64,000 bases of DNA, taken from the NCBI GenBank assembly GCA_028718785.1, contig JAQULB010000002.1:84750-148749 (forward strand), written 5' to 3'. Positions 139-62,269 of the stretch are shown here, piece by piece (position 1 is the stretch's first letter; each line of letters starts with the position of its first letter). The notes below the pieces were generated by a model, which ran no database searches, had not been told where the DNA came from, and saw only the letters and a program-made list of their open reading frames with translations. The position numbers and the translations under genes were made by a program. This stretch comes from Minisyncoccota bacterium. Its GTDB lineage: Bacteria > Patescibacteriota > Minisyncoccia > Minisyncoccales > CG1-02-41-26.

Positions 139-655
139 TTTTACTATAAATATGGCAAGTCCAGAAAACAAAAAGTTTGCTAAAATTTACGATAAACATA
201 TAGATAAAATCTATAGGTTTATATTTTTAAAGACAGGAGTAAAAGAGGTGGCCGAAGACATCACTAGCCAAGTTTTTACTAAGGGCTGGAGAAAATTTAA
301 GCTACAGGGCTGTGAGGTTAAAAATATGTCCGCTTATCTTTTTCAAATTGCCCGAGCTGAGGTGGCCAATCACTATAGAGAAAAAAACAAGTTTCAAATT
401 ATATCCGCACAAGCAGTGGAAATAATTGATGACCAGCCAAACCCAGAAACAACCCAAGAAATAGTGGTCAATACTCAAGACGCCCAAAGTGCCTTAAGGG
501 AATTGGAAGATGGCCTGCAAGATATTTTAATTTGGCATTATGTGGAGGGAATGAGCTTTAAAGAGATTGGCGGTTTATTAAGCCGGCCAGAGGGCACGGT
601 GCGAGTAATGGCGCACAGGGCTTTGAAAGAATTACGTGAAAAAATGGAAGAATAA
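116..655 (+). CDS. ECF-type sigma-70 family RNA polymerase sigma factor
   Basis: 179-aa ORF. Region-2-like IYRFIFLKTGVKEVAEDITSQVFTKGWRKF and region-4 HTH ILIWHYVEGMSFKEIGGLLSRPEGTVRVMAHRALKELREKM. Alternative start is the ATG at 152 (MASPENKK). Confidence 0.85.
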   Translation: MADKIGHSFTINMASPENKKFAKIYDKHIDKIYRFIFLKTGVKEVAEDITSQVFTKGWRKFKLQGCEVKNMSAYLFQIARAEVANHYREKNKFQIISAQAVEIIDDQPNPETTQEIVVNTQDAQSALRELEDGLQDILIWHYVEGMSFKEIGGLLSRPEGTVRVMAHRALKELREKMEE

Positions 656-9089: not shown

Positions 9090-9204
9090 ATTATTAAATT
9101 AACCTAATTAACCTAATTATACTAATTAACCTAAATAAATCCCAATGACTAATTCTCAATTGGGATTTGGGGTTTGGTTATTATTTAGAATAATTAGAAT
9201 AATT
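9090..9204 (-). repeat. ~110-bp intergenic repeat, copy 2 (inverted)
   Basis: Its reverse complement reads ...ctaattattctaaataataaccaaaccccaaatcccaattgagaattagtcattgggatttatttaggttaattagtataattaggttaattaggttaattt. The same TTGGGA-N18-TATAAT is present on the minus strand (9145-9116). Confidence 0.85.
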
Positions 9205-30521: not shown

Positions 30522-31490
30522 ATGCTAAACAATAAAAAAATTTTATTAACTGGCGGAGTGGGTTCTTTTGGCTCAAAGTTTGTCGAAATAGTTTTAAAAA
30601 ATTACAACCCTGCTGTTTTAAGGGTTTTTGATAATAACGAATACAAGGAAGTGGAAATGGAAAGGAAATTTAAAGACGAAAGATTAAGGTTTTTTATTGG
30701 GGATATAAGAGATTTTGACCGCTTAAAAATGGCAATGAGGGGTGTTGATATTGTGGTTCACGCGGCCGCTTTAAAGCACATTACGGTTTGTGAATATAAC
30801 CCAATAGAGGCCATAAAAACAAATATTGATGGGGCTATTAATATTGTAAAAGCCGCTTTAAGTGAAGGGGTGGAAAGGGTTATTGCCTTGAGCACTGATA
30901 AAGCTGCCTACCCGGTAAATCTTTACGGGGCAAGTAAAATGGTAATGGAAAAAATATTTATTCAGGGGAATACTTATTCAGCTAAACAAAACATTCGTTT
31001 TTCTTGCACTCGGTATGGAAATGTAGTTGGTTCGTCTGGTTCGGTTGTTCCTTTATTTAAAGAGCAGGCCAAGACCGGAAAAATCACCATAACTGATGAA
31101 AATATGACAAGGTTTTGGATAACATTGGAGCAGGGAGTAGAGTTTGTTATTAAATCTATTGAAAGAATGGAGGGAGGGGAGATATTTGTTCCCAAGATTC
31201 CTTCAATGAAAATTATGGATTTAGCCAATCTTATAGCTCCAAAAGCAAAAAAAGAAATTATTGGAAAGCGACCAGGTGAAAAGTTGCATGAAGTTTTAAT
31301 TACCAAAGAAGAATCCACTCACGCAAAAGAACACGATAATTATTATACTATTGAGCCAGATTTTCCATTCTGGCCTTATAATGAAGATAGGGGCGGAAGG
31401 GAATTGTCAGAGGGGTTTTTTTATTCAAGCGATACGAATACCCAGTGGTTAAAAGAAGAAGACCTGGGGGAGATAATTACTAATTCCTAA
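30522..31490 (+). CDS. pseB: UDP-N-acetylglucosamine 4,6-dehydratase (inverting), PseB/FlaA1 type
   Basis: Collinear with my recollection of Campylobacter PseB: KKILLTGGVGSFGS, HAAALKHI..CEYNP.EAIKTNI.GA.N, LSTDKAAYPVNLYGASK, TRYGNVVGSSGSVVP, MTRFWITLEQGV, GGEIFVPKIPSMKI.DLA, GEKLHE. Confidence 0.9.
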   Translation: MLNNKKILLTGGVGSFGSKFVEIVLKNYNPAVLRVFDNNEYKEVEMERKFKDERLRFFIGDIRDFDRLKMAMRGVDIVVHAAALKHITVCEYNPIEAIKTNIDGAINIVKAALSEGVERVIALSTDKAAYPVNLYGASKMVMEKIFIQGNTYSAKQNIRFSCTRYGNVVGSSGSVVPLFKEQAKTGKITITDENMTRFWITLEQGVEFVIKSIERMEGGEIFVPKIPSMKIMDLANLIAPKAKKEIIGKRPGEKLHEVLITKEESTHAKEHDNYYTIEPDFPFWPYNEDRGGRELSEGFFYSSDTNTQWLKEEDLGEIITNS

Positions 31491-31537
31491 TTTCTAATAA
31501 CTAAAATGGGAACAGGGATTTTTATTCATTGAGGTCT

Positions 31538-31575
31538 GGTTATTGGGATTTATTTAGGTTAATTAGGTTAATTTA
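31538..31575 (+). repeat. third (partial) copy of the intergenic repeat family seen at 1536-1648 and 9090-9204
   Basis: ggttattgggatttatttaggttaattaggttaattt shares the 27-nt core ttattgggatttatttaggttaatta with the other two copies. Confidence 0.85.
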
Positions 31576-31582
31576 TTTTTTT

Positions 31583-32752
31583 ATGTTTGATAAAAAATTT
31601 ATAATTCCATATGGAAAACAATGGATTGACCAAAGCGATATTGAGGCGGTGGTTGAGGCGCTAAAAAGCGATTGGCTCACTTGCGGGCCCAAAGTGGATG
31701 AGTTTGAAAAATCTATTGCCAATTACTGCAATGTAAAGTATGCGGTGGCTTTTTCTTCTGGCACAGCGGCTTTGCATGGGGCATATAATGCTTTGGGCAT
31801 AAAACAGGGCGATGAAGTTATCACCACGCCCTTGACTTTTTCTGCCACTTCAAATGGAGTGGTTTACTGTGGGGGAAAACCAGTTTTTGTGGAGATAAAG
31901 CCAGAAACATTAAATATTGACCCAGAAAAAATTGAAGAAAAAATAAATTCAAAAACAAAAGCTATTGCCATTGTAGATTTTGCTGGTCAACCCTGTGATT
32001 TCAATGCCATTGAGGCAATTGCCAAAAAACACAATTTACCAATTGTGGAAGATGGGGCGCATGCTTTGGGTTCTGAGTATAATGGTTCGGAAGGCTCACC
32101 ACAAAAAGTTGGCTCTTTGGCTGATCTAACAATTTTAAGTTTTCATCCCGTGAAAACAATTTGTTCTGGGGAGGGGGGAATGGTTTTAACCAACAATCAA
32201 GATTTTTACGAGAAAATGAAAATTTTTAGGCATCATGGCATTGTAAAAAAACCAGAGGGCGGGCCTTGGTATTATGAAATAGAAGAATTGGGATATAATT
32301 ATCGCTTAACAGATATTCATTGCGCTTTGGGGATTTCCCAGTTAAAAAAATTAGATAAGTTTGTGGATAAACGACGCGAAATTGTGGCAAAATACCAAAT
32401 TGCTTTTAAAAACATACCAGAGATTATTTTGATAAAAGAGGAAAGTTTTGCTAAAAGCGCTTGGCATATTTATCCTGTTCAGTTTAATTTATTAAAATTA
32501 AAAATTAACAAAAAAGAAATTTTTGAAAAATTATCAGAAAAAGGAATAAAGTGCCAGGTGCATTATGTGCCTGTTCATTATATGCCTTTTTATCAAAAAA
32601 CATTTGGCTATAAAAAGGGGGATTTTCCAATTACCGAGCAGTATTATGAAAGAGCCATTACCTTGCCCTTATTTCCAAAATTAACTGATGAAGAACTTGA
32701 CTATGTAATTGAATCTGTAAAGGAAATTGTGAATTATGCAAAAAAGCAGTAA
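31583..32752 (+). CDS. pseC: UDP-4-amino-4,6-dideoxy-N-acetyl-beta-L-altrosamine transaminase, PseC type
   Basis: IPYGKQWIDQSDIEAV, SGTAALH, TPLTFSATSN, DGAHALGS, LSFHPVKTI..GEGG, HGIVKK, LGYNYRLTDIHCALGISQLKKLD. These match my recollection of PseC. The ATG at 31583 is preferred to the TTG at 31529. Confidence 0.9.
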   Translation: MFDKKFIIPYGKQWIDQSDIEAVVEALKSDWLTCGPKVDEFEKSIANYCNVKYAVAFSSGTAALHGAYNALGIKQGDEVITTPLTFSATSNGVVYCGGKPVFVEIKPETLNIDPEKIEEKINSKTKAIAIVDFAGQPCDFNAIEAIAKKHNLPIVEDGAHALGSEYNGSEGSPQKVGSLADLTILSFHPVKTICSGEGGMVLTNNQDFYEKMKIFRHHGIVKKPEGGPWYYEIEELGYNYRLTDIHCALGISQLKKLDKFVDKRREIVAKYQIAFKNIPEIILIKEESFAKSAWHIYPVQFNLLKLKINKKEIFEKLSEKGIKCQVHYVPVHYMPFYQKTFGYKKGDFPITEQYYERAITLPLFPKLTDEELDYVIESVKEIVNYAKKQ

Positions 32753-41562: not shown

Positions 41563-42873
41563 CTATTCGGTTTTGAAGAATAACAAAAAGGTTTTAAGCA
41601 AAATGCCCAGATCCAGTAAAAAGGATCTATTTTTTATATAGTATAAATCGTATTGAAATTTCTCATGGCTTTCCTCTTTGCTTCTGGCGTATTGGATAAA
41701 TCGCGTTTGCGCCCAGCCCGTAAACCCTGGTTTTATTATATGGCGTAGATGATAATGGGGAATTTCTTTTTCTAATTGTTTTACAAATTCTGGGCGTTCG
41801 GGTCGGGGGCCGGTTAAAGAAAGCTCGCCCTTTAAAACATTAAGCATTTGAGGAAATTCATCAATGTGGAACTTTTTTAAAACTGCGCCAACTGCTGTAA
41901 CTCGAGGGTCTTTTTTTTCAGCCCACACCGCTCCTTTTTTTTCAGCGTTCACAACCATTGACCTAAATTTAAAAATTAAAAAGTTTTTTCTGTTTTTTCC
42001 AACTCTTTCTTGTTTATAAAAAATTGGACCCCTGTCATCAAGCTTTATGGCAATTGCTGATATAAGCCAAATAGGGGAGGTTATAATAATTAAAACAACA
42101 GCTATAATAAAATCAGTTAGGCGTTTAATTTTGTCGTAGGTGGACTTTTCGTTTTCTGACAGGTTTTTTAAAAACCAGGCCTGGTTCACAAAGTCAATAG
42201 GTATTTTACCCAAAATTTCTTCATAAGCTTTATCTAAAGATAAAAAAGTGGTTTTTAGCCCCAAGCATCCATAAAGCTGTCCTGCTAAAGCGGAATTTTT
42301 TTCAATATTTTCACTAATAACCAAAACGCTAATTTTATATTTTTTAATTTGGGCTGAGAGAGCGATTTTTTCACTTAAAAAACCAATTAATTTATAACCA
42401 AGCTGGGGCTGGCTTTTTATTTCATTTAACAAACTTAAAGCTAACGGCGCTTTGCCCAAAAAAGCTATGTTAGCTCGATATACTGATGAAAAAAGAGCGT
42501 AAAAGAGTTTGCGCCATAAGAATATAAAAGTAGCGAAAATCCCAATATCTAAAAGCAGATTTGTTTTTGGAGTAATGCCGAAAAAAGGTATTAAGTAAAA
42601 GAAAGCTAAAGCAACAATCAAGCAAACTGAAAAGCATTGGAGCATTCTTTTTGGCAATTCTCCTTTTGGGCCAATTATCTTTAAATCGTAAAGTCCAAAA
42701 ATATAAAAGAATATAATCCAAACAAAATAAATAATGCCAAAAGGTATTAAGTGTTGATTTAAAATATTGGAATTAAAGTTGTTCAAATAGCGGATATTTA
42801 AAGCTGAAAGCAAAGCTAAAAAGGCCAATACAATATCGCCAATAGTTAAAATAAATTGTCGTAGTTTAATCAT
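41563..42873 (-). CDS. polyprenyl-phosphate glycosyl-1-phosphate transferase (bacterial sugar transferase, WbaP/WcaJ-like priming enzyme)
   Basis: 436 aa. N-terminal TM helices and a C-terminal catalytic domain PIFYKQERVGKNRKNFLIFKFRSMVVNAEK...DPRVTAVGAVLKKFHIDEFPQMLNVLKGELSLTGPRPERPEF. Confidence 0.85.
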   Translation of the reverse strand: MIKLRQFILTIGDIVLAFLALLSALNIRYLNNFNSNILNQHLIPFGIIYFVWIIFFYIFGLYDLKIIGPKGELPKRMLQCFSVCLIVALAFFYLIPFFGITPKTNLLLDIGIFATFIFLWRKLFYALFSSVYRANIAFLGKAPLALSLLNEIKSQPQLGYKLIGFLSEKIALSAQIKKYKISVLVISENIEKNSALAGQLYGCLGLKTTFLSLDKAYEEILGKIPIDFVNQAWFLKNLSENEKSTYDKIKRLTDFIIAVVLIIITSPIWLISAIAIKLDDRGPIFYKQERVGKNRKNFLIFKFRSMVVNAEKKGAVWAEKKDPRVTAVGAVLKKFHIDEFPQMLNVLKGELSLTGPRPERPEFVKQLEKEIPHYHLRHIIKPGFTGWAQTRFIQYARSKEESHEKFQYDLYYIKNRSFLLDLGILLKTFLLFFKTE

Positions 42874-42880
42874 GTCTTAG

Positions 42881-43138
42881 AAGTCGTTAATAAGCGAAGC
42901 GAATTTACGAATTCTTAGATCCTGTTAAACGCTCCTCTCAGAGAGCGTTTAATCGGGATATTCCTTAAGTCGTTAATAAGCGAAGCGAATTTACGAATTC
43001 TTAGATCCTGTTAAACGCTCCTCTCAAAGAGCGTTTAATCGGGATATTCCTTAAGTCGTTAATAAGCGAAGCGAATTTACGAGTTCTTACACCCCGTTAA
43101 ACGCAACCTCAAGGAGCTGTTTAGCTGGGGTATTATTT
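42881..43138. repeat. three tandem 86-bp repeats, each with an internal hairpin
   Basis: Units at 42881-42966 and 42967-43052 differ at 1 of 86 positions. The third (43053-~43138) is diverged in its distal half. Each contains ttaaacgctc-N8-gagcgtttaa (e.g. 42925-42952) extended by atcc/ggat. Confidence 0.9.
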
Positions 43139-43156
43139 ATACTACAACAAAAAAAG

Positions 43157-43185
43157 TTGAAATTAAATAATAAAACGAGTAATAT
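43157..43185 (+). promoter_or_regulatory. sigma-70-type promoter
   Basis: TTGAAA (43157-43162), 17-nt spacer, TAATAT (43180-43185). Lies 28 nt upstream of the ATG at 43214. Confidence 0.45.
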
Positions 43186-43213: not shown

Positions 43214-45295
43214 ATGGGAAAACAATCGCGAATTAAAAAAGAAAGGAAAACGCAAATTCAAGAGGGAGAAAAAAGCCCAAAAGAGGAAAAGCAAATTTCT
43301 TTTGGCTGGGAAAAGTTTTTAAAAACAATAATTTTTTGGGGCGCTTCTATCGCGCTTTTAACCCCCTTAATTTACAGCTCTAAATATTATTTTCCATTTG
43401 TGGGTCCCAAAAGTTTATATTTTATGTTTTTTTGCCAAGTAATATTTTTTGCTTGGCTAATTTTGGCTCTTTATGATAAAAAATATCGACCCAAAATGAA
43501 TACTGTAATTTTAGCTTTTGGCTTGTTTTTATTTTTTATGACTGTGTCAAGCGTTTTCGGCGTTGATCCCTCTAGATCTTTTTGGTCTAAGTTTGAAAGA
43601 ATGTCAGGGCTTTTGATGTGGCTTAATATGGCTGGGTTTATTTTGGCTGTTTCTTCAACTTTAAAAAATGTTGATGAGTGGAAAAAAATATTTTTTGTTT
43701 CTTTGGGCGTGGCTTTTTTTGTTTCTTTGTTTGGCATATTGGAAAGATTGGGGGTAAAAGCAGTAACATTTTCTGATAGAATGGGGGTTACTTTGGGGAA
43801 TACTTCTTTTTTAGGGTCTTATTTAGTTTTTAATTTTTTTATTGCTGTTTATTTATTTTTTCAGGAAAAGAAAAATTTAATTTTGAAAATTTCTTTAGGG
43901 TTTGTTGCGGTTTTGGCGGTGGTGGCTATCTTTCTTCAAGAAGCTAGGGCGGCTTTGGGGGTTTGTTTTGGAGGTGTTTTATTGATCGGTGTTTTATACT
44001 TAGCTTTTAAGGTAAAAAACAAGGGGGTTAGATTAGGCGGTAAAGTGGCTCTTGTTTTGGGGTCGTTGGCGGTTGTTGTTTCGGTTATTTTGGTATATTT
44101 GCCCAATAATCCTGTCCATAACTTATTTGGCAAAATGGCCACTGAAGGAAGGTTTGCTAATTGGGAAATTGCCCAAAAAGGATTTTTGGAAAGGCCATTT
44201 TTTGGCTGGGGACCTGAAACATACGATATTTTATTTCCAAAATATTTTAACCCTTGCTTGTTTACACAAAAATGCGGAGGAGAGTTTTGGTTTGACAGAA
44301 CCCATAATATTATTTTAGACACATTAGTTGGGACAGGAGCTTTTGGTTTTTTAGCGTATTTGGGAATATTTTTTGCTTTAATATGGGTTTTGCGAAAAAA
44401 ATATTTTAAAGACAAAACAATTGATTTTTGGACATTTGCTGTTTTTATTGCTTTGCCCGTGGCTTATTTTATCCAAAACCTAACTGTTTTTGATATGGTG
44501 GGCAGTTTAATGATGTTTTCTTTAGTTCTGGCTTTTGTTGCCTTTTTAGCTGTTTGGGGTAGCCAGAAAAAAAATGAAAATCGTTATATTCCAAAAAGCA
44601 AATGGCCCATGGTTATGGCTTTGATTTTTGGATTTTTAGTTATTTATTATTTTTCGTATAAACCTTGGCAATTGGACAAGGGCGTTATTTTGGCAGTTCA
44701 AAACCAATATCAAAACGACAGATTACAGGCCTATCAAAAGTGTTTAATGACTTCTTCTTTGGGAAAATATCAAATAACGGATTTTTTCTCTGATTTTTCT
44801 CAGAACATTGTTCAAAACAACCTTGAAAAAGCCCCAAAAGAAGATTTAATTAGAGAAATTGAGGCAGTGGCGAAACTTTCCGAGGAAAGAAAGAAGGACT
44901 CTCCGCTTGATTATCGCATTACTTTAAAATTAGCTCAGATTTACAATACATATGTTTTATTAGACCCTTCAAAAATTGATTTAGCTGAGCAATATGGCAA
45001 AGAAGCAATGAGTCAGTCCCCAAATAATCAGCAGTCATATTGGGTTTTGGCGCAAACAGAGCTTTATAAACAAAACATTGAAGAGGCCAATAAATTGGCT
45101 CAACAGGCAATTGATTTGGAGCCGGGTGTTTTAAAGTCATACCAAATAGCGTCTCAAGTGGCAGCAATTTCTGGCAATCAAGAAAAGGCCATAGAGATTG
45201 CGAAAAAAGCGGTTGAGATAAATCCGGACTGGTTGAAAGATTTTAGCATATTGCCTCAATCACAAGCCACAAGCGCAGAGTCATTGACAAAATAA
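43214..45295 (+). CDS. O-antigen ligase/Wzy_C-domain membrane protein with C-terminal TPR repeats
   Basis: 693 aa with ~12 TM helices. A periplasmic-type loop (RFANWEIAQKGFLERPFFGWGPETYD) is typical of WaaL/PglL/PilO-family proteins. C-terminal ~170 aa are TPR-like (YWVLAQTELYKQNIEEANKLAQQAIDLEP...). Confidence 0.78.
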   Translation: MGKQSRIKKERKTQIQEGEKSPKEEKQISFGWEKFLKTIIFWGASIALLTPLIYSSKYYFPFVGPKSLYFMFFCQVIFFAWLILALYDKKYRPKMNTVILAFGLFLFFMTVSSVFGVDPSRSFWSKFERMSGLLMWLNMAGFILAVSSTLKNVDEWKKIFFVSLGVAFFVSLFGILERLGVKAVTFSDRMGVTLGNTSFLGSYLVFNFFIAVYLFFQEKKNLILKISLGFVAVLAVVAIFLQEARAALGVCFGGVLLIGVLYLAFKVKNKGVRLGGKVALVLGSLAVVVSVILVYLPNNPVHNLFGKMATEGRFANWEIAQKGFLERPFFGWGPETYDILFPKYFNPCLFTQKCGGEFWFDRTHNIILDTLVGTGAFGFLAYLGIFFALIWVLRKKYFKDKTIDFWTFAVFIALPVAYFIQNLTVFDMVGSLMMFSLVLAFVAFLAVWGSQKKNENRYIPKSKWPMVMALIFGFLVIYYFSYKPWQLDKGVILAVQNQYQNDRLQAYQKCLMTSSLGKYQITDFFSDFSQNIVQNNLEKAPKEDLIREIEAVAKLSEERKKDSPLDYRITLKLAQIYNTYVLLDPSKIDLAEQYGKEAMSQSPNNQQSYWVLAQTELYKQNIEEANKLAQQAIDLEPGVLKSYQIASQVAAISGNQEKAIEIAKKAVEINPDWLKDFSILPQSQATSAESLTK

Positions 45296-45558: not shown

Positions 45559-46458
45559 ATGGACAATAAAACGAACAAAATGCAAAAGAATATTTTGTTA
45601 AAGGATTTAACCACTTTTAAGATTGGAGGTGTGGCAAAATATTATTGCCAGGCCAGTAGCCAAGAAGAAATTATTGAGGCCGTAAAATGGGTGCAAGAAA
45701 AAGGCGCGCCGTTTTTTGTTTTAGGCGGGGGAAGCAATGTGTTGATAGGCGATAAAAAATATAAAGGATTAGTGATACAAATAAAAAATCAAATCTTAAA
45801 AATCAAAAACACAGATCAAAACTCAAAAATTATAGAAGTGGGGGCAGGGGTTCCTTTGGGAAAGTTGGTTGGAGTTGCTTTGCAAGAGGGATTAACTGGA
45901 ATGGAGTGGGCAATGGGAATTCCCGGCACAGCGGGAGGGGCTGTTTATGGGAACACGGGAGCGTTTGGCCAGTCAATGGGAGATATAGTAGAAGAGGTGG
46001 AAGCAATAGATATATCAAATATCAAATATCAAATATCAAATATCAAAAAGGAAGGTTGCAAGTTTGGATATAGAGATTCTATTTTTAAAAGAAGTAAAAA
46101 CTTAATAATTTTGTCAGTTAAAATAAAATTGCAAAACGGAGAAAAAGCAGAAATTGAAAACAAAATGAAAGAATTTTTTCAAAAGAAAAAACAAACTCAG
46201 CCCTTAGAGTTTTTTTCTGCTGGATCAATTTTTAAAAATGGCGAAAATTATAAAGCCGCGGACTTGATTGAAAAAGTTGGGCTAAAAGGCAAACGTATTG
46301 GAGGGGTGGAAGTTTCTCAAAAACACAGCAATTTTATTGTTAATAACGGCCGGGGCAAAGCCAGAGATGTAAAAAAATTGATTGATTTAATTAAAAAACA
46401 AGTCAAGAAAAAATTTAATATGGAACTTCAAGAGGAGATCCAATATCTTGGGTTTTAA
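45559..46458 (+). CDS. murB: UDP-N-acetylenolpyruvoylglucosamine reductase
   Basis: LKDLTTFKIGGVAKYY, FVLGGGSNVLI, GIPGTAGGAVYGNTGAFG, FGYRDSIF, SAGSIFKN, GGVEVSQKHSNFIVN. Start is the ATG at 45559 or 45580; the ORF-track start at 45526 is a TTG inside a hairpin. Confidence 0.85.
   Translation: MDNKTNKMQKNILLKDLTTFKIGGVAKYYCQASSQEEIIEAVKWVQEKGAPFFVLGGGSNVLIGDKKYKGLVIQIKNQILKIKNTDQNSKIIEVGAGVPLGKLVGVALQEGLTGMEWAMGIPGTAGGAVYGNTGAFGQSMGDIVEEVEAIDISNIKYQISNIKKEGCKFGYRDSIFKRSKNLIILSVKIKLQNGEKAEIENKMKEFFQKKKQTQPLEFFSAGSIFKNGENYKAADLIEKVGLKGKRIGGVEVSQKHSNFIVNNGRGKARDVKKLIDLIKKQVKKKFNMELQEEIQYLGF
46022..46056 (+). repeat. five perfect tandem copies of the heptamer ATATCAA inside murB
   Basis: 46022-46056 reads (atatcaa)x5. 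It is translated as ISNIKYQISNIK. Confidence 0.95.
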
Positions 46459-47501: not shown

Positions 47502-50090
47502 ATGGGATTATTAAGTAAAATTTTAGGGGATCCAACAGAAAAGTTTTTAAAAAAGGCCTGGGTGGATGTTGAAAAAATAAATTTTTTTGAAGAAAATTTT
47601 TCAAAATTTTCCGCTGAAGAATTAAAGCAAAAAACTTTTCAATTTAAAGAACGATTAAGCAAAGGGGAAACATTAGATGATATTTTGCCCGAGGCCTTTG
47701 CTTTGGTTAGAGAAGGAGCAAAAAGAACTCTTAATCAAAGGCATTTTGATGTTCAGCTTATTGGGGCTATGGTTTTGCATCAAGGGAAAATTGCGGAAAT
47801 GAAAACCGGAGAAGGAAAAACCTTAACTTCAACTTTGGCTGTTTATTTAAACGCATTAGGGGATGAGGGAGTTCATGTGGTGACAGTTAATGATTATTTA
47901 GCTAAAAGGGATTCGGTTTGGATGGGGCAGATATATAATATACTTGGTTTAAGTGTGGGGTGTATCGTTAATGACGCTTCGTTTTTATACGATGAGGAAT
48001 ACGAGCAAAAAATTTCTAATAACGAATTTCTAATTTCTAAACAAATTCAAAAATCAAATGTCAAAAATCAAAAAGATGAGGAAAGGGACATAAAGGGCAG
48101 TTTTAAAGTGGAGCAAAGTTTTTTAAAACCATGTCAAAGAAAAGAGGCCTACACAGCTGACATTACCTATGGCACAAACAATGAATTTGGCTTTGATTAT
48201 TTAAGAGATAATTTAGTTTTTAATTTAGAGGATAAAGTTCAGAGGGATTTTAATTTTGCTATAGTAGATGAAATTGACTCAATTTTAATTGATGAGGCCA
48301 GAACACCTCTTATTATTTCTCAGCCCGACCTTGAATCATCGGTTTTGTATAAAGATTTTTCAAAAATTGTTCCCAAATTAAAAGAGCCAGTTGATTACAA
48401 TTTAGATGAAAAATTAAAAACTGCCTCATTAACCGAAGAAGGCATAAATAAGATTGAAAATATTTTAGGCGTGGAAAATATATATGAAAGCAAGGGCATA
48501 AAATATTTGCATTTTTTGGAGCAGTCCTTGAGAGCAATGGTTTTTTTTCAAAAAGACAAGGATTATATTGTTAAAGACGGGCAAATTATTATTATTGATG
48601 AATTTACAGGCAGAATGTTGCCTGGTCGACGATACTCTGGGGGCTTACACCAAGCCATTGAGGCCAAAGAAAAAGTGGAGGTTCAGCCAGAATCAAAAAT
48701 TTTAGCCACCATTACTTTTCAAAATTATTTTCGGTTTTATAAAAAACTATCCGGAATGACAGGCACGGCTTTAAGTTCAGCAGAGGAATTTGACAAGGTT
48801 TATAAGTTAATGGTTGTGGCTGTGCCCACAAACAAAAAAATGATAAGACGGGACTTGCCTGATTTAATTTACAAAACCGAAAAAGCCAAGTTTAAGGCCG
48901 TGGTGGAAATAATAAAAGCCAAGCAAAAAATTGGCCAGCCCGTATTGGTGGGCACAAAATCAGTTGAAAAAAATGAGTATTTGAAACGGCTTTTGGAGCG
49001 AGAGGGAGTAAGGCATGAAATTTTAAACGCTAAAAACCACGAACGAGAAGGAGAAATCATTGCTCAAGCTGGTAAAAAGGGTGCGGTAACTGTGGCCACA
49101 AATATGGCTGGAAGAGGAGTGGATATTATGCTTGGCGGAGTGCCCCCAAGCAGAATTAAATATCAAGTATCAAATATTAAAAACAACGAAGAAGAGATTA
49201 TAAGCGAACAGTACAAACAATGGGAAAAACAAAGAGATGAAATTTTAGCTTTGGGCGGGCTTTGCGTTGTTGGCACAGAAAGGCATGAAGCCAGAAGAAT
49301 TGACGACCAGTTAAGGGGCAGGGCAGGCAGGCAGGGAGATCCGGGCTCGTCTCAATTTTTTGTTTCTTTGGAAGATGATTTAATGAGGATTTTTGGAGGA
49401 GATAGATTAAAAGCGGTTATGAACACCTTAAAAGTAGATGAAAATCAACCCATTCAAGCGGGGATAATCTCTAGGGCTATTGAAAAAGCTCAAATTAGGG
49501 TTGAGGGATTTAATTTTGACGGAAGAAAGCATGTTTTAGAGTATGATGATGTTATTTCAAAGCACAGAAACGCTATTTATTCAAAAAGAGAAGACATTTT
49601 GAAGCAAAACTATGACGAGTTAAAAGAAAATGTTTTATTAATCTTAAAAAAAGAGCTTGAAAAAATTACAAGCATTTACTCAAATAGCGACACCTCTCAA
49701 ACAGAAGCTATTATTGAAGAAATTAAAACTATTTTTCCCTTAAGCGTTCAAGACATTGAAAGAGTTAAAGTTTTAAAAGATGGAGAGGAGATATTGAAAT
49801 TTTTAAGCGAAGCGTTAGAGAGGTTTTATTTGGCCAAAGAAGCCCAAGACGGGAAAGAAAGCTTTCAAAAACTTTTAAAATTTATTTGTTTGAGAACAAT
49901 TGATTTTTTCTGGACAGAACATTTGGTTTCTTTGGATTACTTAAAAGAGTCGGTTGGGTTAAGGGCCTATGGGGGAAGAGATCCGTTAGTTGAATATAAA
50001 TCCGAAAGCCACAAGCTTTTTAGAGAATTGCAAGATTCTATCAATGCTCAAATTTCAAGAACCGCTTTAAAGGTTTCAATGAACAAGTAA
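47502..50090 (+). CDS. secA: preprotein translocase ATPase SecA
   Basis: 862 aa. MKTGEGKTLT Walker A, ITYGTNNEFGFDYLRDN, VDEIDSILIDEARTPLIIS, TGMTGTA, TNMAGRGVDI, GTERHEARRIDDQLRGRAGRQGDPGSS. Confidence 0.95.
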   Translation: MGLLSKILGDPTEKFLKKAWVDVEKINFFEENFSKFSAEELKQKTFQFKERLSKGETLDDILPEAFALVREGAKRTLNQRHFDVQLIGAMVLHQGKIAEMKTGEGKTLTSTLAVYLNALGDEGVHVVTVNDYLAKRDSVWMGQIYNILGLSVGCIVNDASFLYDEEYEQKISNNEFLISKQIQKSNVKNQKDEERDIKGSFKVEQSFLKPCQRKEAYTADITYGTNNEFGFDYLRDNLVFNLEDKVQRDFNFAIVDEIDSILIDEARTPLIISQPDLESSVLYKDFSKIVPKLKEPVDYNLDEKLKTASLTEEGINKIENILGVENIYESKGIKYLHFLEQSLRAMVFFQKDKDYIVKDGQIIIIDEFTGRMLPGRRYSGGLHQAIEAKEKVEVQPESKILATITFQNYFRFYKKLSGMTGTALSSAEEFDKVYKLMVVAVPTNKKMIRRDLPDLIYKTEKAKFKAVVEIIKAKQKIGQPVLVGTKSVEKNEYLKRLLEREGVRHEILNAKNHEREGEIIAQAGKKGAVTVATNMAGRGVDIMLGGVPPSRIKYQVSNIKNNEEEIISEQYKQWEKQRDEILALGGLCVVGTERHEARRIDDQLRGRAGRQGDPGSSQFFVSLEDDLMRIFGGDRLKAVMNTLKVDENQPIQAGIISRAIEKAQIRVEGFNFDGRKHVLEYDDVISKHRNAIYSKREDILKQNYDELKENVLLILKKELEKITSIYSNSDTSQTEAIIEEIKTIFPLSVQDIERVKVLKDGEEILKFLSEALERFYLAKEAQDGKESFQKLLKFICLRTIDFFWTEHLVSLDYLKESVGLRAYGGRDPLVEYKSESHKLFRELQDSINAQISRTALKVSMNK

Positions 50091-52490: not shown

Positions 52491-52516
52491 TGTTAAAATA
52501 GTTAAACTCATTTTAT

Positions 52517-52534
52517 TTATTAACGACTTCTAAG
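52517..52534 (+). promoter_or_regulatory. 18-nt leader element shared with the priming glycosyltransferase gene
   Basis: ttattaacgacttctaag ends 2 nt before the ATG at 52537. The identical 18-mer (minus strand, 42893-42876) ends 2 nt before the ATG at 42873. Confidence 0.6.
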
Positions 52535-52536: not shown

Positions 52537-55212
52537 ATGCAGAAAAATTGGCACGAAATTTCATTGACGAAAATTTACTCAATATTGAAAACCCATCCCA
52601 ATGGGTTAAGCATAGAGGAGGCGAATTTTCGGTTACAAAAAAATGGCAAAAATGTTTTGCCTTCAACAAAACCGCTTTCTAAAAAAAAGCTTTTTTTTAG
52701 CCAGTTTAACAGCCCTTTAATGTATATTCTTTTAACAGCGGTTGTTGTTTCTTCTTTTTTAAAGCATCTTTCTGACACTATTTTTATTGTTGTGGTTTTG
52801 TTTATTAACACCACTGTGGGATTTTATCAAGAAAACAAAGCCAACAAATCTTTGGTTGCTTTAAAAAATATGATAAAGATAAAAGCCAAAGTTTTGCGCG
52901 ATAGCAATGAAAAAGAAATCGACAGCGAGGATGTGGTTGTGGGGGATGTGGTTATATTAAAAACGGGAGATAAAGTTCCTTGCGATGGCCGAATTATTGA
53001 ATCAAAAAATTTAAAAGTTGATGAAGCCAGTTTAACTGGGGAATTTATGGCGGTGAAAAAGGATATAGCGCAAAAAATACCAGAAAAAGCGTCTCTTGCT
53101 GAGCAGCTTAATATGGTTTTTATGGGCACAATTGTTGAGGAAGGAGAGGCCAAGTTAATAACCACAGGAATTGGCCTTAACACAGAAATTGGCAAAGTTG
53201 TTAAGTTGTTGAAAGAAACTAAAGAAAGAAGAACACCTCTTCAAAAGAAAATCCTCACGCTTTCAAAGCAAACCGCTGCTTTTATTTTAGCTATTATTTT
53301 GGTTATTATTTTAATTGGGCATTTTACAGAAAAATCTTTTAATGACATATTAGTGGCTTCGTTGGCTTTGGCTGTTTCAGCCATTCCTGAAGGTCTCTTG
53401 CCAGCTATTACTGTTATATTAACTTTGGGAATGCGTCGGATTTTTAAACAAAAAGGATTGGTGAGAAAATTAATTGCCACTGAAACTTTGGGGAGCGTAA
53501 CTGTTATTTGCGCTGATAAAACAGGCACTTTAACTGAGGGCAAAATGCAAGTGAGCGATATTTTAACAAGCACGACAGAATTGTTGAACGGCAATTTTAA
53601 GGGAATTTTACAAAACAAAAATTCAAACGGGGTTGAGTCGCATATTCTTGCTTTAAAAATTGCCACTTTGGTTAATGAAGCGTTTGTGGAAAATCCCGAT
53701 CAAGAATTAGAGAAATGGGTAATAAGGGGAAGGCCAACCGACCAGGCCTTGTTGATAGCTGGAATGCAAGCTGGTTTATATAAAAAAGAGCTGGAGGTTC
53801 AGTATCCTTTAATTGACAGAATTAATTTTGAATCTGGCGCAAAATATGCCACCACTTATCGTAAACTTAACAATAAGAAAAATATTTTATACGCTTTGGG
53901 CGCCCCGGAAATAATTATTGAAAAGTCAACTCATTTGGATATTGATGGCAAAAAGAAAAAGTTAAGTTCTGTTGCTTTAAACAAACTCCTTCTTAGGGTT
54001 GATAATTTAACTAAAAAGGGCTTAAGGGTATTGGCTTGTAGCTACAAAGAATACCCTTTATCCACAAAGTATAAAAATTTAAATGAGTTAAGAGAAAAAA
54101 CAATATTGGTTGGTTTTATTGCCATTAAAGACCCCTTAAGACCTGATGCCTCAGAATCTATTGAAATTACTAAAAAAGCTGGCATCCGCGCAGTTATTAT
54201 CACAGGGGACCACAAATTAACAGCCCAAACAATTGCTTTGGAGGTTGGGCTTGAAGCAGAAAAAGAAAATATTTTAGAAGGAAAAGAAATTGATGACTTG
54301 AGCGATGCGGACTTAAAAGAAAAAGTTAAATTTGTTTCAGTTTATGCGCGGGTTTCTCCCAGCCATAAGCTTCGTATTGTAAAAGCTCTTCAAGATAACA
54401 ACGAGGTTGTGGCTATGGTGGGAGATGGAGTCAATGATGCTCCAGCTTTAAAAATTGCTGATATTGGCATTTCTTTGGGCTCTGGAACGGATGTGGCAAA
54501 AGAATCTGCGGATTTGGTTTTACTTGATAATAATTTTAAAACCATTATTAAGGCCATTGAACAAGGGAGGGTTGTGTTTGGAAATATAAGAAAGGTTTTT
54601 ACCTATTTAGTGGCTGATGACTTTTCGGAGCTGTTTTTATTTTTGGGTTGTATGATAATGGGATTTCCCTTACCGCTCCTACCAGCTCAGATTCTTTGGA
54701 TAAATTTAGTGGAAGATGGATTCCCTGATATTGCCTTAACAACTGAGCAGGAAACAAAAGGCATAATGGACGAGCCCCCCAGAGACCCCAAAGAGCCAAT
54801 TTTAAACAAACCCTTAAAAAAATGGATGGCTTTTATTTTTTTAATCTCTGGATTGGCGGCTTTTCTTGCGTTTTTGCTTTTTTGGAAAATTTTTGGGCAA
54901 TTAGAAAAAGCCAGAACAATGACTTTTGCTTTAATGTGTTTTGACTCTTTAGCGTTTGCTTTTTCTGTGAGGTCGTTTAAAAGAACGATTTTTAGAAAAG
55001 ATATTTTCTCTAACAGGTATTTGGTTTTTGGCGTTGCGTTGGGGCTTGTTTTGTTGTTTGGAGCTATTTACTTTCCACCCTTACAAAAACTTTTAGCCAC
55101 TCAACCTTTAGGCAGTATTGATTGGCTGATGATTTTTGGCATTAGCTTAACAGAAATTATTTTAATAGAAACTGCCAAGAAACTGGTTTTTGGCTTTAAA
55201 AAAATAAAATAA
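52537..55212 (+). CDS. P-type cation-transporting ATPase (P2, Ca2+/Mg2+-type)
   Basis: 891 aa. TGE region, phosphorylation site CADKTGTLTEG, ITGDHKLTA, VGDGVNDAPALKIADIGISLG, about 10 TM helices. Confidence 0.9.
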   Translation: MQKNWHEISLTKIYSILKTHPNGLSIEEANFRLQKNGKNVLPSTKPLSKKKLFFSQFNSPLMYILLTAVVVSSFLKHLSDTIFIVVVLFINTTVGFYQENKANKSLVALKNMIKIKAKVLRDSNEKEIDSEDVVVGDVVILKTGDKVPCDGRIIESKNLKVDEASLTGEFMAVKKDIAQKIPEKASLAEQLNMVFMGTIVEEGEAKLITTGIGLNTEIGKVVKLLKETKERRTPLQKKILTLSKQTAAFILAIILVIILIGHFTEKSFNDILVASLALAVSAIPEGLLPAITVILTLGMRRIFKQKGLVRKLIATETLGSVTVICADKTGTLTEGKMQVSDILTSTTELLNGNFKGILQNKNSNGVESHILALKIATLVNEAFVENPDQELEKWVIRGRPTDQALLIAGMQAGLYKKELEVQYPLIDRINFESGAKYATTYRKLNNKKNILYALGAPEIIIEKSTHLDIDGKKKKLSSVALNKLLLRVDNLTKKGLRVLACSYKEYPLSTKYKNLNELREKTILVGFIAIKDPLRPDASESIEITKKAGIRAVIITGDHKLTAQTIALEVGLEAEKENILEGKEIDDLSDADLKEKVKFVSVYARVSPSHKLRIVKALQDNNEVVAMVGDGVNDAPALKIADIGISLGSGTDVAKESADLVLLDNNFKTIIKAIEQGRVVFGNIRKVFTYLVADDFSELFLFLGCMIMGFPLPLLPAQILWINLVEDGFPDIALTTEQETKGIMDEPPRDPKEPILNKPLKKWMAFIFLISGLAAFLAFLLFWKIFGQLEKARTMTFALMCFDSLAFAFSVRSFKRTIFRKDIFSNRYLVFGVALGLVLLFGAIYFPPLQKLLATQPLGSIDWLMIFGISLTEIILIETAKKLVFGFKKIK

Positions 55213-60913: not shown

Positions 60914-62071
60914 ATGTTTAGAAGTTTAAATGATTACAATTTTTTTAATAAAAAGGTTTTAGTGAGGTGCGATTTTAATGTGGCAATTGAAAGGGGCAAG
61001 GTTGTTGATGATTTTAAAATAAAAAGAGCCCAAAAAACCATAGAGTATTTAAAAGAAAGCGGGGCAAAAATAATTTTGGCCAGTCACTTAGAAAAAGACA
61101 ATTTTTTTGATAGAGCGAGTTTGAGGCCAGTTTCTGTGGTTTTAGAAAAGTTATTTAGTGAGAAAACACTATTTTCTCCAAAATGTATTGGGAAAAAAGC
61201 TAAAAGAATGGCTGAAAATCTAAAACCTGGCCAGATTTTACTTTTAGAAAATTTACGCTTCAATAAGGGTGAAAAGAAAAATAGCGAAAAGTTTGCCAAA
61301 GAGCTTGCGGGATTGGCTGAAATTTATGTTGGGGAGGCCTTTAGTTGTTGTCATAGAGACCATGCTTCTATTGTTTCTTGTCCAAAACTTTTACCTCATT
61401 TTATTGGGCTCGAATGTGAGAGGGAAATAAGCGTTTTAAGTTCTTTGATGGAAAAACCAGAAAGACCGTTAGTTGTTTTAGTTGGGGGGGCCAAGGTGGA
61501 GGCAAAATTAAAAATGATTAAAAAGTTTTTGCCATTGGCTGATCATTTGCTTTTTGGGGGGAAGATTGCTAATGTTTTGCTTTCAGTGAAGGGTATTGTG
61601 GTTGAAAATTCAGAGATTAGCTCTCAAACAAAAAGAATTTTATCTCAAATTAACTTAACTGATCCTAAAATCCATTTACCTTTAGATGTTTTAGCATCTT
61701 TGGGCGGTAAAAACGATAATGTAAGGCAAGTGGCTTTGGGAGGTATAAGAAAAGAAGAAGAAATTTTTGACATTGGAGAGGCAACCCAAGAAAAATTTTC
61801 AGAAATTTTGAAAACAGCTAAAACTATTTTTTGGTCTGGAGATTTAGGGCTTGTTGAGAATCCAAAATTTAGAAATGGCACATCGGAAATTGTTAAAGCA
61901 ATAGGGAAGAACAAGAGCGCTTTAAGGGTGGCTGGGGGAGGAGATACGGTGGCCTTTATAAGGAGCGAGGGTATGGAAGGCGATTTTTCTTTTCTGTCGA
62001 TTGGAGGAAGCGCTTTATTGGAGTTTATAGCCAACGGAACCCTGCCTGGCGTTGAAGCGCTGAAAATATAA
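60914..62071 (+). CDS. pgk: phosphoglycerate kinase
   Basis: KKVLVRCDFNV, ILASHL, LLENLRFNKGEKKN, GEAFSCCHRDHAS, GGAKVEAKL, GGGDT. The ATG at 60914 is preferred to the TTG at 60905. Confidence 0.9.
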   Translation: MFRSLNDYNFFNKKVLVRCDFNVAIERGKVVDDFKIKRAQKTIEYLKESGAKIILASHLEKDNFFDRASLRPVSVVLEKLFSEKTLFSPKCIGKKAKRMAENLKPGQILLLENLRFNKGEKKNSEKFAKELAGLAEIYVGEAFSCCHRDHASIVSCPKLLPHFIGLECEREISVLSSLMEKPERPLVVLVGGAKVEAKLKMIKKFLPLADHLLFGGKIANVLLSVKGIVVENSEISSQTKRILSQINLTDPKIHLPLDVLASLGGKNDNVRQVALGGIRKEEEIFDIGEATQEKFSEILKTAKTIFWSGDLGLVENPKFRNGTSEIVKAIGKNKSALRVAGGGDTVAFIRSEGMEGDFSFLSIGGSALLEFIANGTLPGVEALKI

Positions 62072-62269
62072 AAAGATATAGAATGGTAGCGCTTCCGCAA
62101 GGAGGGGTCGGGAGGAATGCAATTCCTCCCGTGTAGGAAAACAGGCCACCTTTGGTGGCCGTTAGAAACCAAGGGTTTCTAAAGAGCGAGAGAAGCGAGC
62201 GATGGAAGCGCTTTATTGGAGTTTATAGCCAACGGAACCCTGCCTGGCGTTGAAGCGCTGAAAATATAA
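62006..62269 (+). repeat. perfect 66-bp direct repeat (62006-62071 and 62204-62269) flanking a 132-bp GC-rich palindromic insert
   Basis: Both copies read ggaagcgctttattggagtttatagccaacggaaccctgcctggcgttgaagcgctgaaaatataa (the last 21 pgk codons plus stop, with 2 nt of the preceding codon). The insert carries three perfect hairpins (62109-62131, 62144-62160, 62162-62182). Confidence 0.95.

Follow-up and report, generated by a model that had tools for sequence, protein, structure and literature searches.

A tandem array in the leader of a phosphoglycosyl transferase gene is probably made of ORF-less copies of a dispersed hairpin repeat linked to a GIY-YIG nuclease

Genes and repeat array at the PGT locus

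The DNA analysed here (the window, a stretch of 64 kb) carries a phosphoglycosyl transferase gene (PGT, Bac_transf; 41563..42873, minus strand), the 5' leader of which contains a tandem array of 86-bp repeats, a Wzy_C/TPR gene on the other side of the array (43214-45295, plus strand) and, farther along, a P-type cation ATPase gene (52537..55212, plus strand) with a truncated copy of the repeat upstream. The domain scan, complemented by orthologues in the case of PGT, assigned the three genes as a preliminary description of this DNA had done; a database record was found neither for the ATPase of the window nor for its Wzy_C protein. Comparison with relatives delineated a conserved divergent promoter block on the minus strand (43135..43165; sense AATTTCAAC...TATAAAT), which directly adjoins the PGT ATG in relatives lacking the element. 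The order is promoter block, 6 nt and ATG in L006, and promoter block, one unit and ATG in L082. A promoter-like site for the Wzy_C/TPR gene (TTGAAA-17-TAATAT; 43157-43185, plus strand), detected in the sigma-70 scan, overlaps this block. The window organism otherwise lacks Shine-Dalgarno sequences, and its leaders are AT-rich.

Tandem Repeats Finder placed the array at 42881-43123 (period 86, 2.8 copies, 93% matches, score 414), and the repeat search resolved three in-register copies of 86 nt (42881-42966, 42967-43052 and 43053-43138, with identities of 100, 99 and 76%), in agreement with the head-to-tail arrangement noted earlier. Folding recovered a hairpin, B', in each of the three units (42919..42959, 43005-43045 and 43091-43131), with plus-strand energies of -26.1, -25.9 and -23.1 kcal/mol (z-scores -3.6, -3.9 and -2.4) and minus-strand values close to these. 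Unit 1, adjoining the ATG (42881..42966, minus strand), and unit 2 (42967..43052, minus strand) are short-form copies of subfamily 2, the former consisting of the B' hairpin and module C; they differ at 1 nt (99% identity) and closely match L057 from MAG JAZDKU01 and L050 from MAG JAUSHZ01 (96-97% for unit 1, 97-98% for unit 2). Unit 3, on the promoter side (43053..43131, minus strand), is a short-form copy of subfamily 1 (ACCCCAGYTAAAC...GTTTAACGGGGTGT type), which differs from units 1 and 2 at ~21 positions (64-65/86 identical, ~75%) and is 96% identical to L023, a copy in another genome (JAUSHZ01). It had been taken for a diverged duplicate of its neighbours, with compensatory changes in the stem; the position of the hairpin is indeed kept through different base pairs, but the identities point to membership in another subfamily and not to evolution in place. 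As classified by these comparisons, a single subfamily-1 unit precedes two subfamily-2 units in the array. The units lack spacers and no cas-type domain was detected in the ten neighbouring genes scanned, which agrees with the earlier view that this is not a CRISPR array. No intrinsic terminator was found within the units. Rfam yielded nothing at gathering score across the whole window and, for the repeat and one full-length copy, only sub-threshold miRNA-type noise, and a riboswitch or another known cis-regulatory RNA was rejected for lack of such matches.

Exact search confirmed that an 18-mer, TTATTAACGACTTCTAAG, is common to the PGT and ATPase leaders. It occurs exactly twice in the window, at 42876-42893 (minus strand) and 52517-52534 (plus strand), even with 3 mismatches allowed, and both copies stop 2 nt short of an ATG (0.09 matches expected by chance). 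At PGT, the 18-mer is the gene-proximal end of the element and the 3' arm of an imperfect stem, P1, predicted by folding (bases 42876-42891, sense ATTAACGACTTCTAAG); the partner arm, located in unit 1 at 42903..42918 (minus strand; sense CTAAGAATTCGTAAAT), includes a fossil stop codon, TAA, and is kept as AARAAYTCGTAAAT in ~45 copies. The ATPase 18-mer lies within a 5'-truncated module C (52501..52534, plus strand), between a TAAAAT -10 box and the ATPase ATG, which has neither the B' hairpin nor the P1 5' arm. This stretch is identical to module C of L085 at 34/41 positions and is a weak match in the profile search (E=0.45), and the leaders of the ATPase orthologues in L003 and L006 read TAAAAT, 5-6 nt and ATG, with the insert absent. 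By these alignments, we identify the ATPase 18-mer as the end of a 5'-truncated copy, the remnant of another insertion. Pairing between the 18-mer part ACGACUUC and the complementary GAAGUCGU, which we take to be the 16S rRNA sequence near the 3' end, was considered and rejected: an 8-nt match is expected by chance, this rRNA region is base-paired, and there is no 16S gene in the window.

A dispersed repeat family placed against start codons

Judged by sequence and layout, the 86-bp units are ORF-less members of a dispersed, modular, hairpin-rich repeat family present in several MAGs of Patescibacteria (Candidate Phyla Radiation, CPR). The full element is ordered as module A hairpin, hairpin B and module C, the 3' module, in which AAGAAYTCGTAAAT is followed by a variable small hairpin and ATTAACGAYTTCTAA. 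The two-arm pattern was found at 62 loci in the genome collection, ~44 of which are CPR copies (21 in MAG JAUSHZ01, 8 in Ca. Gribaldobacteria PFAV01, 7 in JAZDKU01, plus others), and profile search added ~20 further copies to the exact-pattern ~44, while the window's own subfamily was recovered from 30 metagenome loci. A single viral-contig match to the two-arm pattern proved to be unrelated Bacteroides-type sequence, and the phage collection contained no match to the full element. An ATG lies 0-7 nt past module C in 56/58 complete copies, against a background of 9.5%, and it opens an ORF of at least 50 aa in 56/56 cases (background 2.4%), the ATG being absent from both the search pattern and the profile. 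Thus, the suggestion of a modular leader element recurring right before start codons is borne out, and of the possibility that the 18-mer is a generic genome-wide repeat unrelated to starts only the first half holds: the repeat is genome-wide, but it is tightly start-linked.

The genes downstream of the copies, as judged by reading the protein sequences and not by family search, are not related in function (recA, ssb, ribosomal proteins, among others), and many are highly expressed housekeeping genes; on account of this heterogeneity, a functional regulon was rejected. The orientation of the element always tracks the gene and not the chromosome strand, as at PGT (minus) and ATPase (plus) in the window and, likewise, at PGT (plus) and the acetyltransferase (minus) in L003. 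The element fills the slot between the host promoter, or the stop codon of the preceding gene, and the host ATG, with module C set against the ATG; it is often placed within operons, and the host -10 box, where present before the element, stays immediately upstream. Tandem arrays independent of that in the window occur in L080 and L101, with different junctions; the heterogeneity of junctions among arrays is compatible with recombination and points to no defined mechanism. Many of the metagenome copies are located at contig ends.

Copies within and between genomes are near-identical, also over non-essential positions, and the module C arms are almost perfectly conserved, mismatches included, among Pacebacteria, Gribaldobacteria and MAGs labelled Saccharibacteria, whereas the loops vary. 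The variable inserts retain a hairpin built from different stems (mean dG -6.2 vs -1.7 in shuffles). The sense strand folds more stably in 21/45 copies, and G.U counts are 231 vs 245; strand-specific RNA structure, and with it the RNA-specific hairpin proposed earlier, was therefore rejected, in a crude test with segments that included some flanking sequence, because sense and antisense energies and G.U counts are indistinguishable. The conservation of hairpins without a sense/antisense bias is the only hint, and an indirect one, of possible site-specific cutting of single-stranded DNA beside the hairpin.

Occupancy differs among relatives that share the syntenic PGT/Wzy_C pair and have 86-87% identical PGT: the PGT leader contains no unit in L002 and L006, one in L082, one together with other hairpins in L003, and three in the window, so that the repeat is absent or variable at this site, an outcome that the preliminary description had itself named as counting against its reading. 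The element at the acetyltransferase site is found only in L003, and the ATPase site is empty in L003 and L006. No consistent target-site duplication was found in occupied vs empty sites at three loci or in 30 subfamily-2 copies; in subfamily 2 both ends frequently carry AAG, inseparable from the element sequence, subfamily 1 shows no duplication, and the empty sites lack CTAA. In the long form, module A is identical to the reverse complement of module C at 33/53 positions (controls 27-29), a modest similarity that did not bear out clean terminal inverted repeats; the short-form units of the window have no module A and hence no terminal inverted repeats. It is from these two lines, presence/absence polymorphism and near-identity of copies, that we infer the element to be mobile.

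The nuclease-bearing form and the origin of the array

Intact nuclease-bearing copies of the element are found in L033 (5596-5865) and L108 (12385-12651). In both, an ORF of 89 aa encoding a single-domain protein lies inside hairpin B, and its 3' end overlaps B and module C, such that the last nuclease codons supply the 3' arm of hairpin B as well as the opening arm of module C. The protein matches the Pfam GIY-YIG family (PF01541, E=7e-18), with weaker, overlapping matches to PF10544 and PF07101, and its best relatives in the PDB are the UPF0213 proteins 1zg2 (E=1e-6) and 1ywl (E=5e-4). In L033, L108 and L072, module A or A' and the B 5' arm are upstream of the nuclease, and the B 3' arm and module C or a C-like hairpin are downstream; the architecture is unchanged in a distant intact copy upstream of rplJ, and L108 has the order host -10 box, element and host gene. 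In L011, the nuclease is present as a truncated pseudogene. Comparison of the nuclease genes (24 synonymous and 5 nonsynonymous differences; dN/dS ~0.03) indicates that the nuclease is under purifying selection. No database record was found for the Pacebacteria nuclease paralogues P0122 and P0123, and an attempt to connect the nuclease to the Ssn clade discussed below by way of plasmid homologues gave one weak match.

There is no nuclease gene within the 64-kb window, and the units nevertheless appear to carry its trace. The ORF ends ...SYFTGCKSS*, ...SYSTGCKNS* and ...SYLTGCKNS* overlap the B'/module C sequence in L033, L011 and L054, and the sense 3' arm with the next bases reads TTA ACA GGA TCT AAG AAT TCG TAA (LTGSKNS*) in units 1 and 2 and TTA ACG GGG TGT AAG AAC TCG TAA (LTGCKNS*) in unit 3. 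We identify these readings, from the correspondence of the codons, as the remnant of the nuclease ORF 3' end.

Taken together, these results make it likely that the array consists of ORF-less copies of a nuclease-linked dispersed hairpin repeat and is not a dedicated regulator of glycan assembly. The cassette, with no promoter of its own, would be transcribed from the host promoter, and module C would serve as the end through which translation of the host gene is maintained, in leaders that are AT-rich and devoid of Shine-Dalgarno sequences. On the model of the Ssn system and its NTS/SRM hairpins, the nuclease of the element may recognise the hairpin modules, probably as single-stranded DNA, and break-induced recombination might then spread, homogenise and locally amplify the units. 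The array of the window could have formed at a hot spot in the PGT leader, either by recombination or through repeated gain of units; it would lengthen and structure the PGT 5' UTR and may thereby affect expression without being a dedicated regulator. More tentatively, the family may represent a class of bacterial selfish elements not described before, in which the spread of a structured cassette and its ORF-less derivatives, specifically into the promoter/start-codon slot, is driven by a minimal stand-alone GIY-YIG nuclease in place of a transposase; the cassette would borrow the host promoter and supply a standard 5' leader in return. If this possibility were realised, a sizeable fraction of the genes in some CPR genomes, with recA, ssb and ribosomal protein genes among them, would be translated from one imported leader.

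Alternatively, module C, with or without the hairpins, could be a cis-acting RNA element that benefits the host: recognised by ribosomes or by some protein or RNA acting in trans, such a portable leader would set the translation or mRNA stability of many genes, and the nuclease ORF, a secondary passenger, would have invaded a hairpin loop, as homing endonuclease genes have invaded introns. The near-invariant position relative to the AUG, the extreme degree to which the module C arms are conserved between candidate phyla, the end of P1 at the start codon, the housekeeping genes downstream and the lack of Shine-Dalgarno sequences otherwise in this organism all fit this view, but orthologous genes of close relatives work without the element, near-identity over non-essential positions is typical of recent spread rather than of an old regulon, and the pairing has no sense-strand bias; besides, P1 is weak (-10 kcal/mol, z=-1.1) or missing in some copies, its 5' arm is lacking in the copy at the ATPase, and Rfam has no match. 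We therefore regard a portable leader as unlikely. It would be very unlikely for each unit to contain an outward promoter, as Correia elements do, with the array tripling the PGT promoter dosage: the sigma-70 scan found no promoter-like site within the units on either strand, and the retention of the host -10 box immediately upstream suggests dependence on the host promoter. Direct reading of the sequence does offer a weakly -10-like TCGTAAAT/TAAATT with TTTAAC/TTAACR 15-16 nt upstream, and a new promoter could help within operons, where insertion is frequent, but these hexamers fit at 3-4/6 positions and their spacing is suboptimal.

The initial model, in which a locus-specific triple operator or RNA hairpin array regulates PGT and co-regulates the ATPase, had in its favour the location of the array, with the PGT promoter block on one side and the PGT ATG on the other, and the same 18-mer before the ATPase gene. 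It is now hardly credible: in related genomes, dozens of unrelated genes have this element in front of them, which argues against control of the first step of glycan assembly, and relatives have 0, 1 or 3 units at the PGT site and no element at the ATPase orthologues. The array, moreover, is a composite of two subfamilies, and a triple DNA operator is disfavoured by stem arms more than 100 nt apart in L003. There is, finally, a slim chance that the repeat is real and that the number or order of units was mis-assembled from short reads. The 258-bp array is longer than usual reads, many of the copies from metagenomes are at contig ends, and an independent (Logan) assembly of the PGT gene stops within the repeat, 37 nt before the ATG is reached, so that a copy number of exactly 3 holds as assembled in this contig; against this, the ~21 differences of unit 3 and the one between units 1 and 2 serve an assembler as anchors, tandem arrays were assembled independently in L080 and L101, and L001 and L082 confirm the presence of the element at the PGT site.

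If the array is, as we favour, a local instance of a genome-wide element, it calls for caution with locus-specific-regulator readings of such arrays in CPR MAGs. The element would also explain why contigs of CPR metagenome assemblies so often break just before a gene, and a functional leader would bear on translation start in organisms largely without Shine-Dalgarno sequences.

Comparison with known systems

Several groups of bacterial repeats and mobile genes resemble the CPR element in part. Free-standing GIY-YIG homing endonuclease genes (phage T4 seg, I-TevI-type) similarly lie between host genes, show presence/absence polymorphism and depend on host transcription signals, but the enzymes carry a further domain for DNA binding and target a single cognate site, whereas the CPR nuclease consists of the catalytic domain alone and its element occupies many non-homologous sites per genome, with abundant ORF-less derivatives. 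Pneumococcal BOX and enterobacterial BIME/REP elements are likewise assembled from modular hairpin sub-elements with variable tandem internal modules, and different repeat types can be nested and clustered in one intergenic region; their sequences, however, are unrelated to the CPR element. In particular, REPs are GC-rich palindromes of 20-40 nt with GTAG/CGTC tags, mobilised by a Y1 transposase (RAYT) and usually found at the 3' ends of genes, in contrast to the AT-rich CPR units of at least 86 nt, which start with AAGGAAT or ACCCC, lie 5' of genes and are GIY-YIG-linked.

MITEs and the Correia elements of Neisseria (reviewed in PMC10969869) share with the CPR repeats a short length (here 86-250 nt), the lack of an ORF, multiple intergenic copies with presence/absence polymorphism, a location mostly just upstream of genes with co-transcription as structured 5' UTRs, and the existence of a longer ORF-bearing relative. 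In contrast to MITEs, target-site duplication could not be demonstrated for the CPR element, terminal inverted repeats are absent from the short form in the window, and the partner with common ends (L033, L108) encodes a GIY-YIG nuclease and no transposase of a known family. Unlike Correia elements, the CPR repeats keep an almost constant orientation and distance relative to the ATG, and they contain no internal promoter consensus.

The closest known system, as far as sequence and architecture can tell, is that of the Ssn nucleases, which are paired with NTS/SRM hairpin repeats. The Ssn enzyme, 94 aa long, has a single GIY-YIG domain, lacks a DNA-binding domain and is flanked by hairpin repeats that are also dispersed (Chenal et al. 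2025, PMC11893778). The CPR family has a small (~90-aa) single-domain GIY-YIG nuclease, in the ORFs of L033 and L108 though not in the window, and the same repeat-nuclease-repeat architecture with flanking hairpin repeats dispersed in the genome; in both systems, the repeats are oriented, mostly intergenic, clustered near genes and present in many copies, and nuclease variants are paired with different repeat variants. The SRM motif itself, HGTCWYN(0-2)YYVSBRHN(0-5)WNVSBRGN(0-2)RNCYNB, gave 0 matches on both strands of 243,606 bases of element-rich CPR loci, the window included (shuffles average 0.6 matches, and the NTS consensus, the positive control, matches). The CPR unit is also far longer (86-250 nt vs 20-50 nt in Ssn) and modular, and the best solved relatives of its nuclease are UPF0213 proteins. 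The clade of the Ssn nucleases is cd10448 (GIY-YIG_unchar_3). Two features appear to be new with respect to Ssn/NTS: the repeats derive by deletion from the very cassette that encodes the nuclease, with ORF-less copies keeping the fossil of the ORF 3' end, and they almost always abut start codons in gene orientation, in CPR hosts. The Ssn/NTS concept, in which a small GIY-YIG nuclease is paired with its cognate hairpin repeats, would thus extend to the Candidate Phyla Radiation, and if the CPR nuclease were hairpin-specific, it would offer new specificities for a family proposed as single-stranded DNA tools.

The array and its site in relatives

The feature is real. Rather than being a dedicated regulator, it is a composite cluster in which copies of a dispersed, nuclease-associated repeat stand locally in tandem; in these CPR bacteria, the repeat acts as the 5′ leader of many genes or is at least tolerated in that position. 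The three tandem 86-nt units of the preliminary description, located in the leader of the minus-strand gene for a Bac_transf phosphoglycosyl transferase (PGT; 41563-42873), next to the gene for a Wzy_C/TPR protein, were recovered by both Tandem Repeats Finder (42881-43123; period 86, 2.8 copies, 93% matches) and a repeat search (in-register 86-nt copies, n = 3, at 42881-42966, 42967-43052 and 43053-43138; identity 100, 99 and 76%). The hairpin described earlier folds in every unit, at -23 to -26 kcal/mol on the plus strand and -21 to -23 kcal/mol on the minus strand, with z-scores of -2.2 to -3.9. Likewise borne out was the 2-nt distance to the ATG of both copies of an 18-mer common to the leaders of the PGT gene (42876-42893, minus strand) and of a P-type ATPase gene 9.6 kb away (52517-52534, plus strand); these are the only two matches in 64 kb with up to three mismatches permitted (chance expectation, 0.09). 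The window comes from a Candidatus Pacebacteria (Patescibacteria/CPR) MAG, and the two leaders stand out because the upstream regions of nearly all its genes are AT-rich and free of Shine-Dalgarno sequences. In the fold, the 18-mer makes up the 3′ arm of stem P1, formed by imperfect inverted repeats (CTAAGAAYTCGTAAAT and ATTAACGAYTTCTAAG) around a small variable insert and weak beside the AUG (-10 kcal/mol).

The full element consists of a module A hairpin (GTAATCCGTTAWTGAAAGCGAGCC-loop-GGCGAAGCTTGAAATTTACGGAGGA), hairpin B (ACCCCGTGRAGTA...TACTYCACAGGGGT, frequently enclosing further AT-rich hairpins) and module C, which comprises the P1 arms around a variable hairpin and adjoins the ATG; longer copies measure 200-250 nt. 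The short form in the window is composed of a B′ hairpin and module C. Units 1 and 2, counted from the PGT start codon, show 96-98% identity with L057, a copy in JAZDKU01 (L-numbers denote loci fetched from other genomes, MAGs and metagenomes), and with L050 in JAUSHZ01, and unit 3 is 96% identical to another JAUSHZ01 copy (L023) but only ~75% to units 1 and 2, with a 30-nt stretch of module C identical in all three. By these similarities, the array is a composite of two subfamilies. The altered stem of unit 3, previously taken for compensatory change, is a difference between coexisting subfamilies, because this unit matches L023 better than its array neighbors. Tandem arrays arose independently at two other loci: L080 carries at least two units and a partial third in front of ssb (period, 82; junction, ...ACGAT followed by AGGAATATCC), where L086 and L106 each carry one, and L101 carries two to three units with yet a different junction.

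The synteny of PGT divergent from Wzy_C, followed by murB, secA and secDF, is kept in relatives whose PGT is 76-87% identical. The PGT leader contains three units in the window, exactly one in L082, one plus two unrelated hairpins in L003, other hairpin modules followed by the same final ~40 nt in L007, and no element in L002 and L006; in L006, only 6 nt separate a conserved promoter block (AATTTCAAC...TATAAAAT) from the ATG. These relatives show the array to be dispensable and variable. In the ATPase orthologs of L003 and L006, a TAAAAT box lies 5-6 nt before the ATG, without extra sequence, so that the window ATPase leader represents a ~35-nt insertion. With 34 of 41 positions matching a 'tcatttcattc'-type module C, and with neither B′ nor the P1 5′ arm, it is a truncated copy. 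In L003, the terminal motif also precedes a third, unrelated gene, for an acetyltransferase, where it ends a 190-nt insertion absent from four other genomes. The variability of the PGT leaders, together with downstream genes of the family unrelated to glycan synthesis, contradicts the earlier proposal of a control element dedicated to the first committed glycan step, and the interest lies mainly in the properties of the family, less in the window array itself.

Other repeats and insertions were observed in the same genomes. The last 66 nt of the window ORF at 60914-62071 (...GSALLEFIANGTLPGVEALKI-stop) are duplicated with 100% identity at 62204-62269, and the intervening 132 nt are hairpin-rich (GGGAGGAATGCAATTCCTCCC, GGCCACCTTTGGTGGCC, AGAAACCAAGGGTTTCT); the span 62006-62269, for which Rfam and tRNA searches gave no match, looks like an insertion that duplicated the 3′ end of the gene. 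AT-rich 9-mer arrays (TTCTAATTA/TTAATTAGG) at 1534-1647, 9097-9204 and 31474-31601 are another repeat family; the first two are mutually inverted (85 nt, 86% complementary) and flank a 1.8-9.1 kb block of large ORFs, one with 81-nt coding repeats (5862-6104). The murB ORF contains a perfect 5 x ATATCAA (46012-46047) in the linker between the FAD-binding and C-terminal domains, with similar A-rich heptamer runs nearby (45779-45830 and 48011-48074). Unrelated hairpin repeat families occupy intergenic sites in L006 (~9700-9800 and 16940-17007), L003 (9890-9980) and L016 (~860-900); one type is a GC-rich palindrome (CCCGCCCCACCCCTCCGCC...GGCGGAGGAGTGGGGCGGG), and another is a pair, GGGCAATTT...AAATTGCCC and GTTAAAGCC...GGCTTTAAC, that recombines with B′ hairpin halves in L079 and L098. 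A weak LAGLIDADG_3 match in the aminotransferase gene of a sialic-acid-like cluster (L007, 19199-20386) hints that a gene for sugar biosynthesis has been invaded by an intein or a homing endonuclease.

A dispersed family at start codons

A two-arm scan of one genome per species, with a pattern containing no ATG, yielded 62 loci, ~44 of them CPR copies (21 in JAUSHZ01, 8 in Ca. Gribaldobacteria PFAV01, 7 in JAZDKU01, 3 in each of two Saccharibacteria-labeled MAGs, and others); the remaining matches are one-offs in unrelated taxa. Another ~20 diverged copies came from a profile search within the fetched loci, and scanning metagenomes for the window's own subfamily gave 30 further loci with the same arrangement. 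Some 8-kb loci have 4-6 copies before successive genes. An ATG lies 0-7 nt away in 56 of 58 complete copies (as TTCTAAC-ATG in 43 of these) and opens an ORF of at least 50 aa in all 56, the background rates being 9.5% and, with such an ORF, 2.4%. Orientation tracks the gene, not the chromosome strand. By sequence inspection, the downstream proteins include RecA, SSB, NusA, several ribosomal proteins, CheY-like regulators, MraY, CTP synthase, HisRS, pilus proteins, LexA, SecG and Hsp20, with no link to glycan synthesis among them.

Separately, a conserved sequence in Bacteroidales genomes and one IMG/VR contig (L008, L014, L034) matches the two-arm pattern (AAAAACTCGTAAATTAGCGYATTCATTAACGAA); it does not have the TTCTAA-ATG end and seems to have no relationship with the CPR family. 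In L017 (~359-500, minus strand), one copy of module C sits between a tRNA-like sequence (GCCGATGTAGTTCAGTGGTAGAAC...), which it directly follows, and the gene for a zinc-ribbon-like, probably ribosomal, protein of 53 aa; the element thus also occupies gaps between RNA and protein genes.

In promoter-type upstream contexts, the element starts a few nucleotides past the host -10 box, as in the window (TATAAAT, AAT, then ACCCC), L108 (TGGTAAAAT followed by AAATAATCCG), L012, L033, L018, L044, L050, L057 and L082; where the upstream gene is co-oriented, it starts at the stop codon of that gene. From these positions, we infer that host signals would drive transcription of the cassette and that module C would have to leave the host gene translatable. 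Hairpins are preserved despite quite different stems: variable inserts of at least 17 nt have a mean dG of -6.2 vs -1.7 in shuffles, and the hairpin B arms differ between subfamilies. This conservation, together with the lack of sense/antisense asymmetry in stability (sense more stable in 21 of 45 copies) or G.U content (231 vs 245), of an Rfam match to the element, and of sigma-70-like promoters or intrinsic terminators inside the units, favors structures that matter at the DNA level, with RNA-level effects possible as well.

The associated nuclease and known systems

Within hairpin B, L033 (5508-5913) and L108 contain an 89-aa ORF whose last codons (...SYFTGCKSS-stop/...KNS-stop) are formed by the B 3′ arm and module C (GTAAG..TCGTAA). 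The ORF encodes a GIY-YIG catalytic domain (Pfam, E=7e-18). Among solved structures, those closest to it belong to the UPF0213 proteins BH0048 and EF2693, each a minimal GIY-YIG domain that stands alone and falls in the Slx1-like lineage (PMC1564403). Between the two intact copies there are 24 synonymous and 5 nonsynonymous changes (dN/dS ~0.03), and the protein is therefore functional. A 76% identical copy upstream of rplJ is bracketed by ACCCTGTGAA...TTCACAGGGT, with the final hairpin adjoining the host ATG; L011 has a truncated pseudogene at the equivalent position, 3′ of clpP, and L054 and L016 retain ORF remnants. The 411 database homologs are mostly from CPR MAGs, often on very short contigs. 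The 64-kb window has no nuclease gene; its units still carry the ORF end as a fossil, TTA ACG GGG TGT AAG AAC TCG TAA (LTGCKNS-stop) in unit 3 and TTA ACA GGA TCT AAG AAT TCG TAA (LTGSKNS-stop) in units 1 and 2.

On the 3′ side of the intact L108 nuclease (~12270-12385, minus strand) lies a module C variant, ATCAATGATTTCTAAC, whose internal ATG appears to start the next gene, for a ROK-type kinase (MISNKKENILGVDIGG...); the first four codons of this host protein may therefore come from the element.

Our literature searches found no description of the CPR repeat family. GIY-YIG ORFs occur in non-intron insertions in CPR rRNA genes, seemingly 'outside the context of homing' (PMC11270868). The family behaves much like BOX/BIME mosaics and like MITEs, Correia elements among them. 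Of the features that define MITEs, terminal inverted repeats and target-site duplication are not clearly present, and the ORF-bearing partner has a GIY-YIG nuclease gene in place of one for a transposase. The closest known system is Ssn/NTS-SRM, in which 94-aa single-domain GIY-YIG nucleases (clade cd10448), whose genes lie between oriented hairpin repeats numbering in the hundreds, cut single-stranded DNA beside the hairpin (PMC11893778). The two share architecture and logic, but the published SRM motif has 0 matches in 244 kb (the positive control passed), and the CPR units are much longer and modular, are internal-deletion derivatives of the cassette when dispersed, and are near-absolute in their association with start codons.
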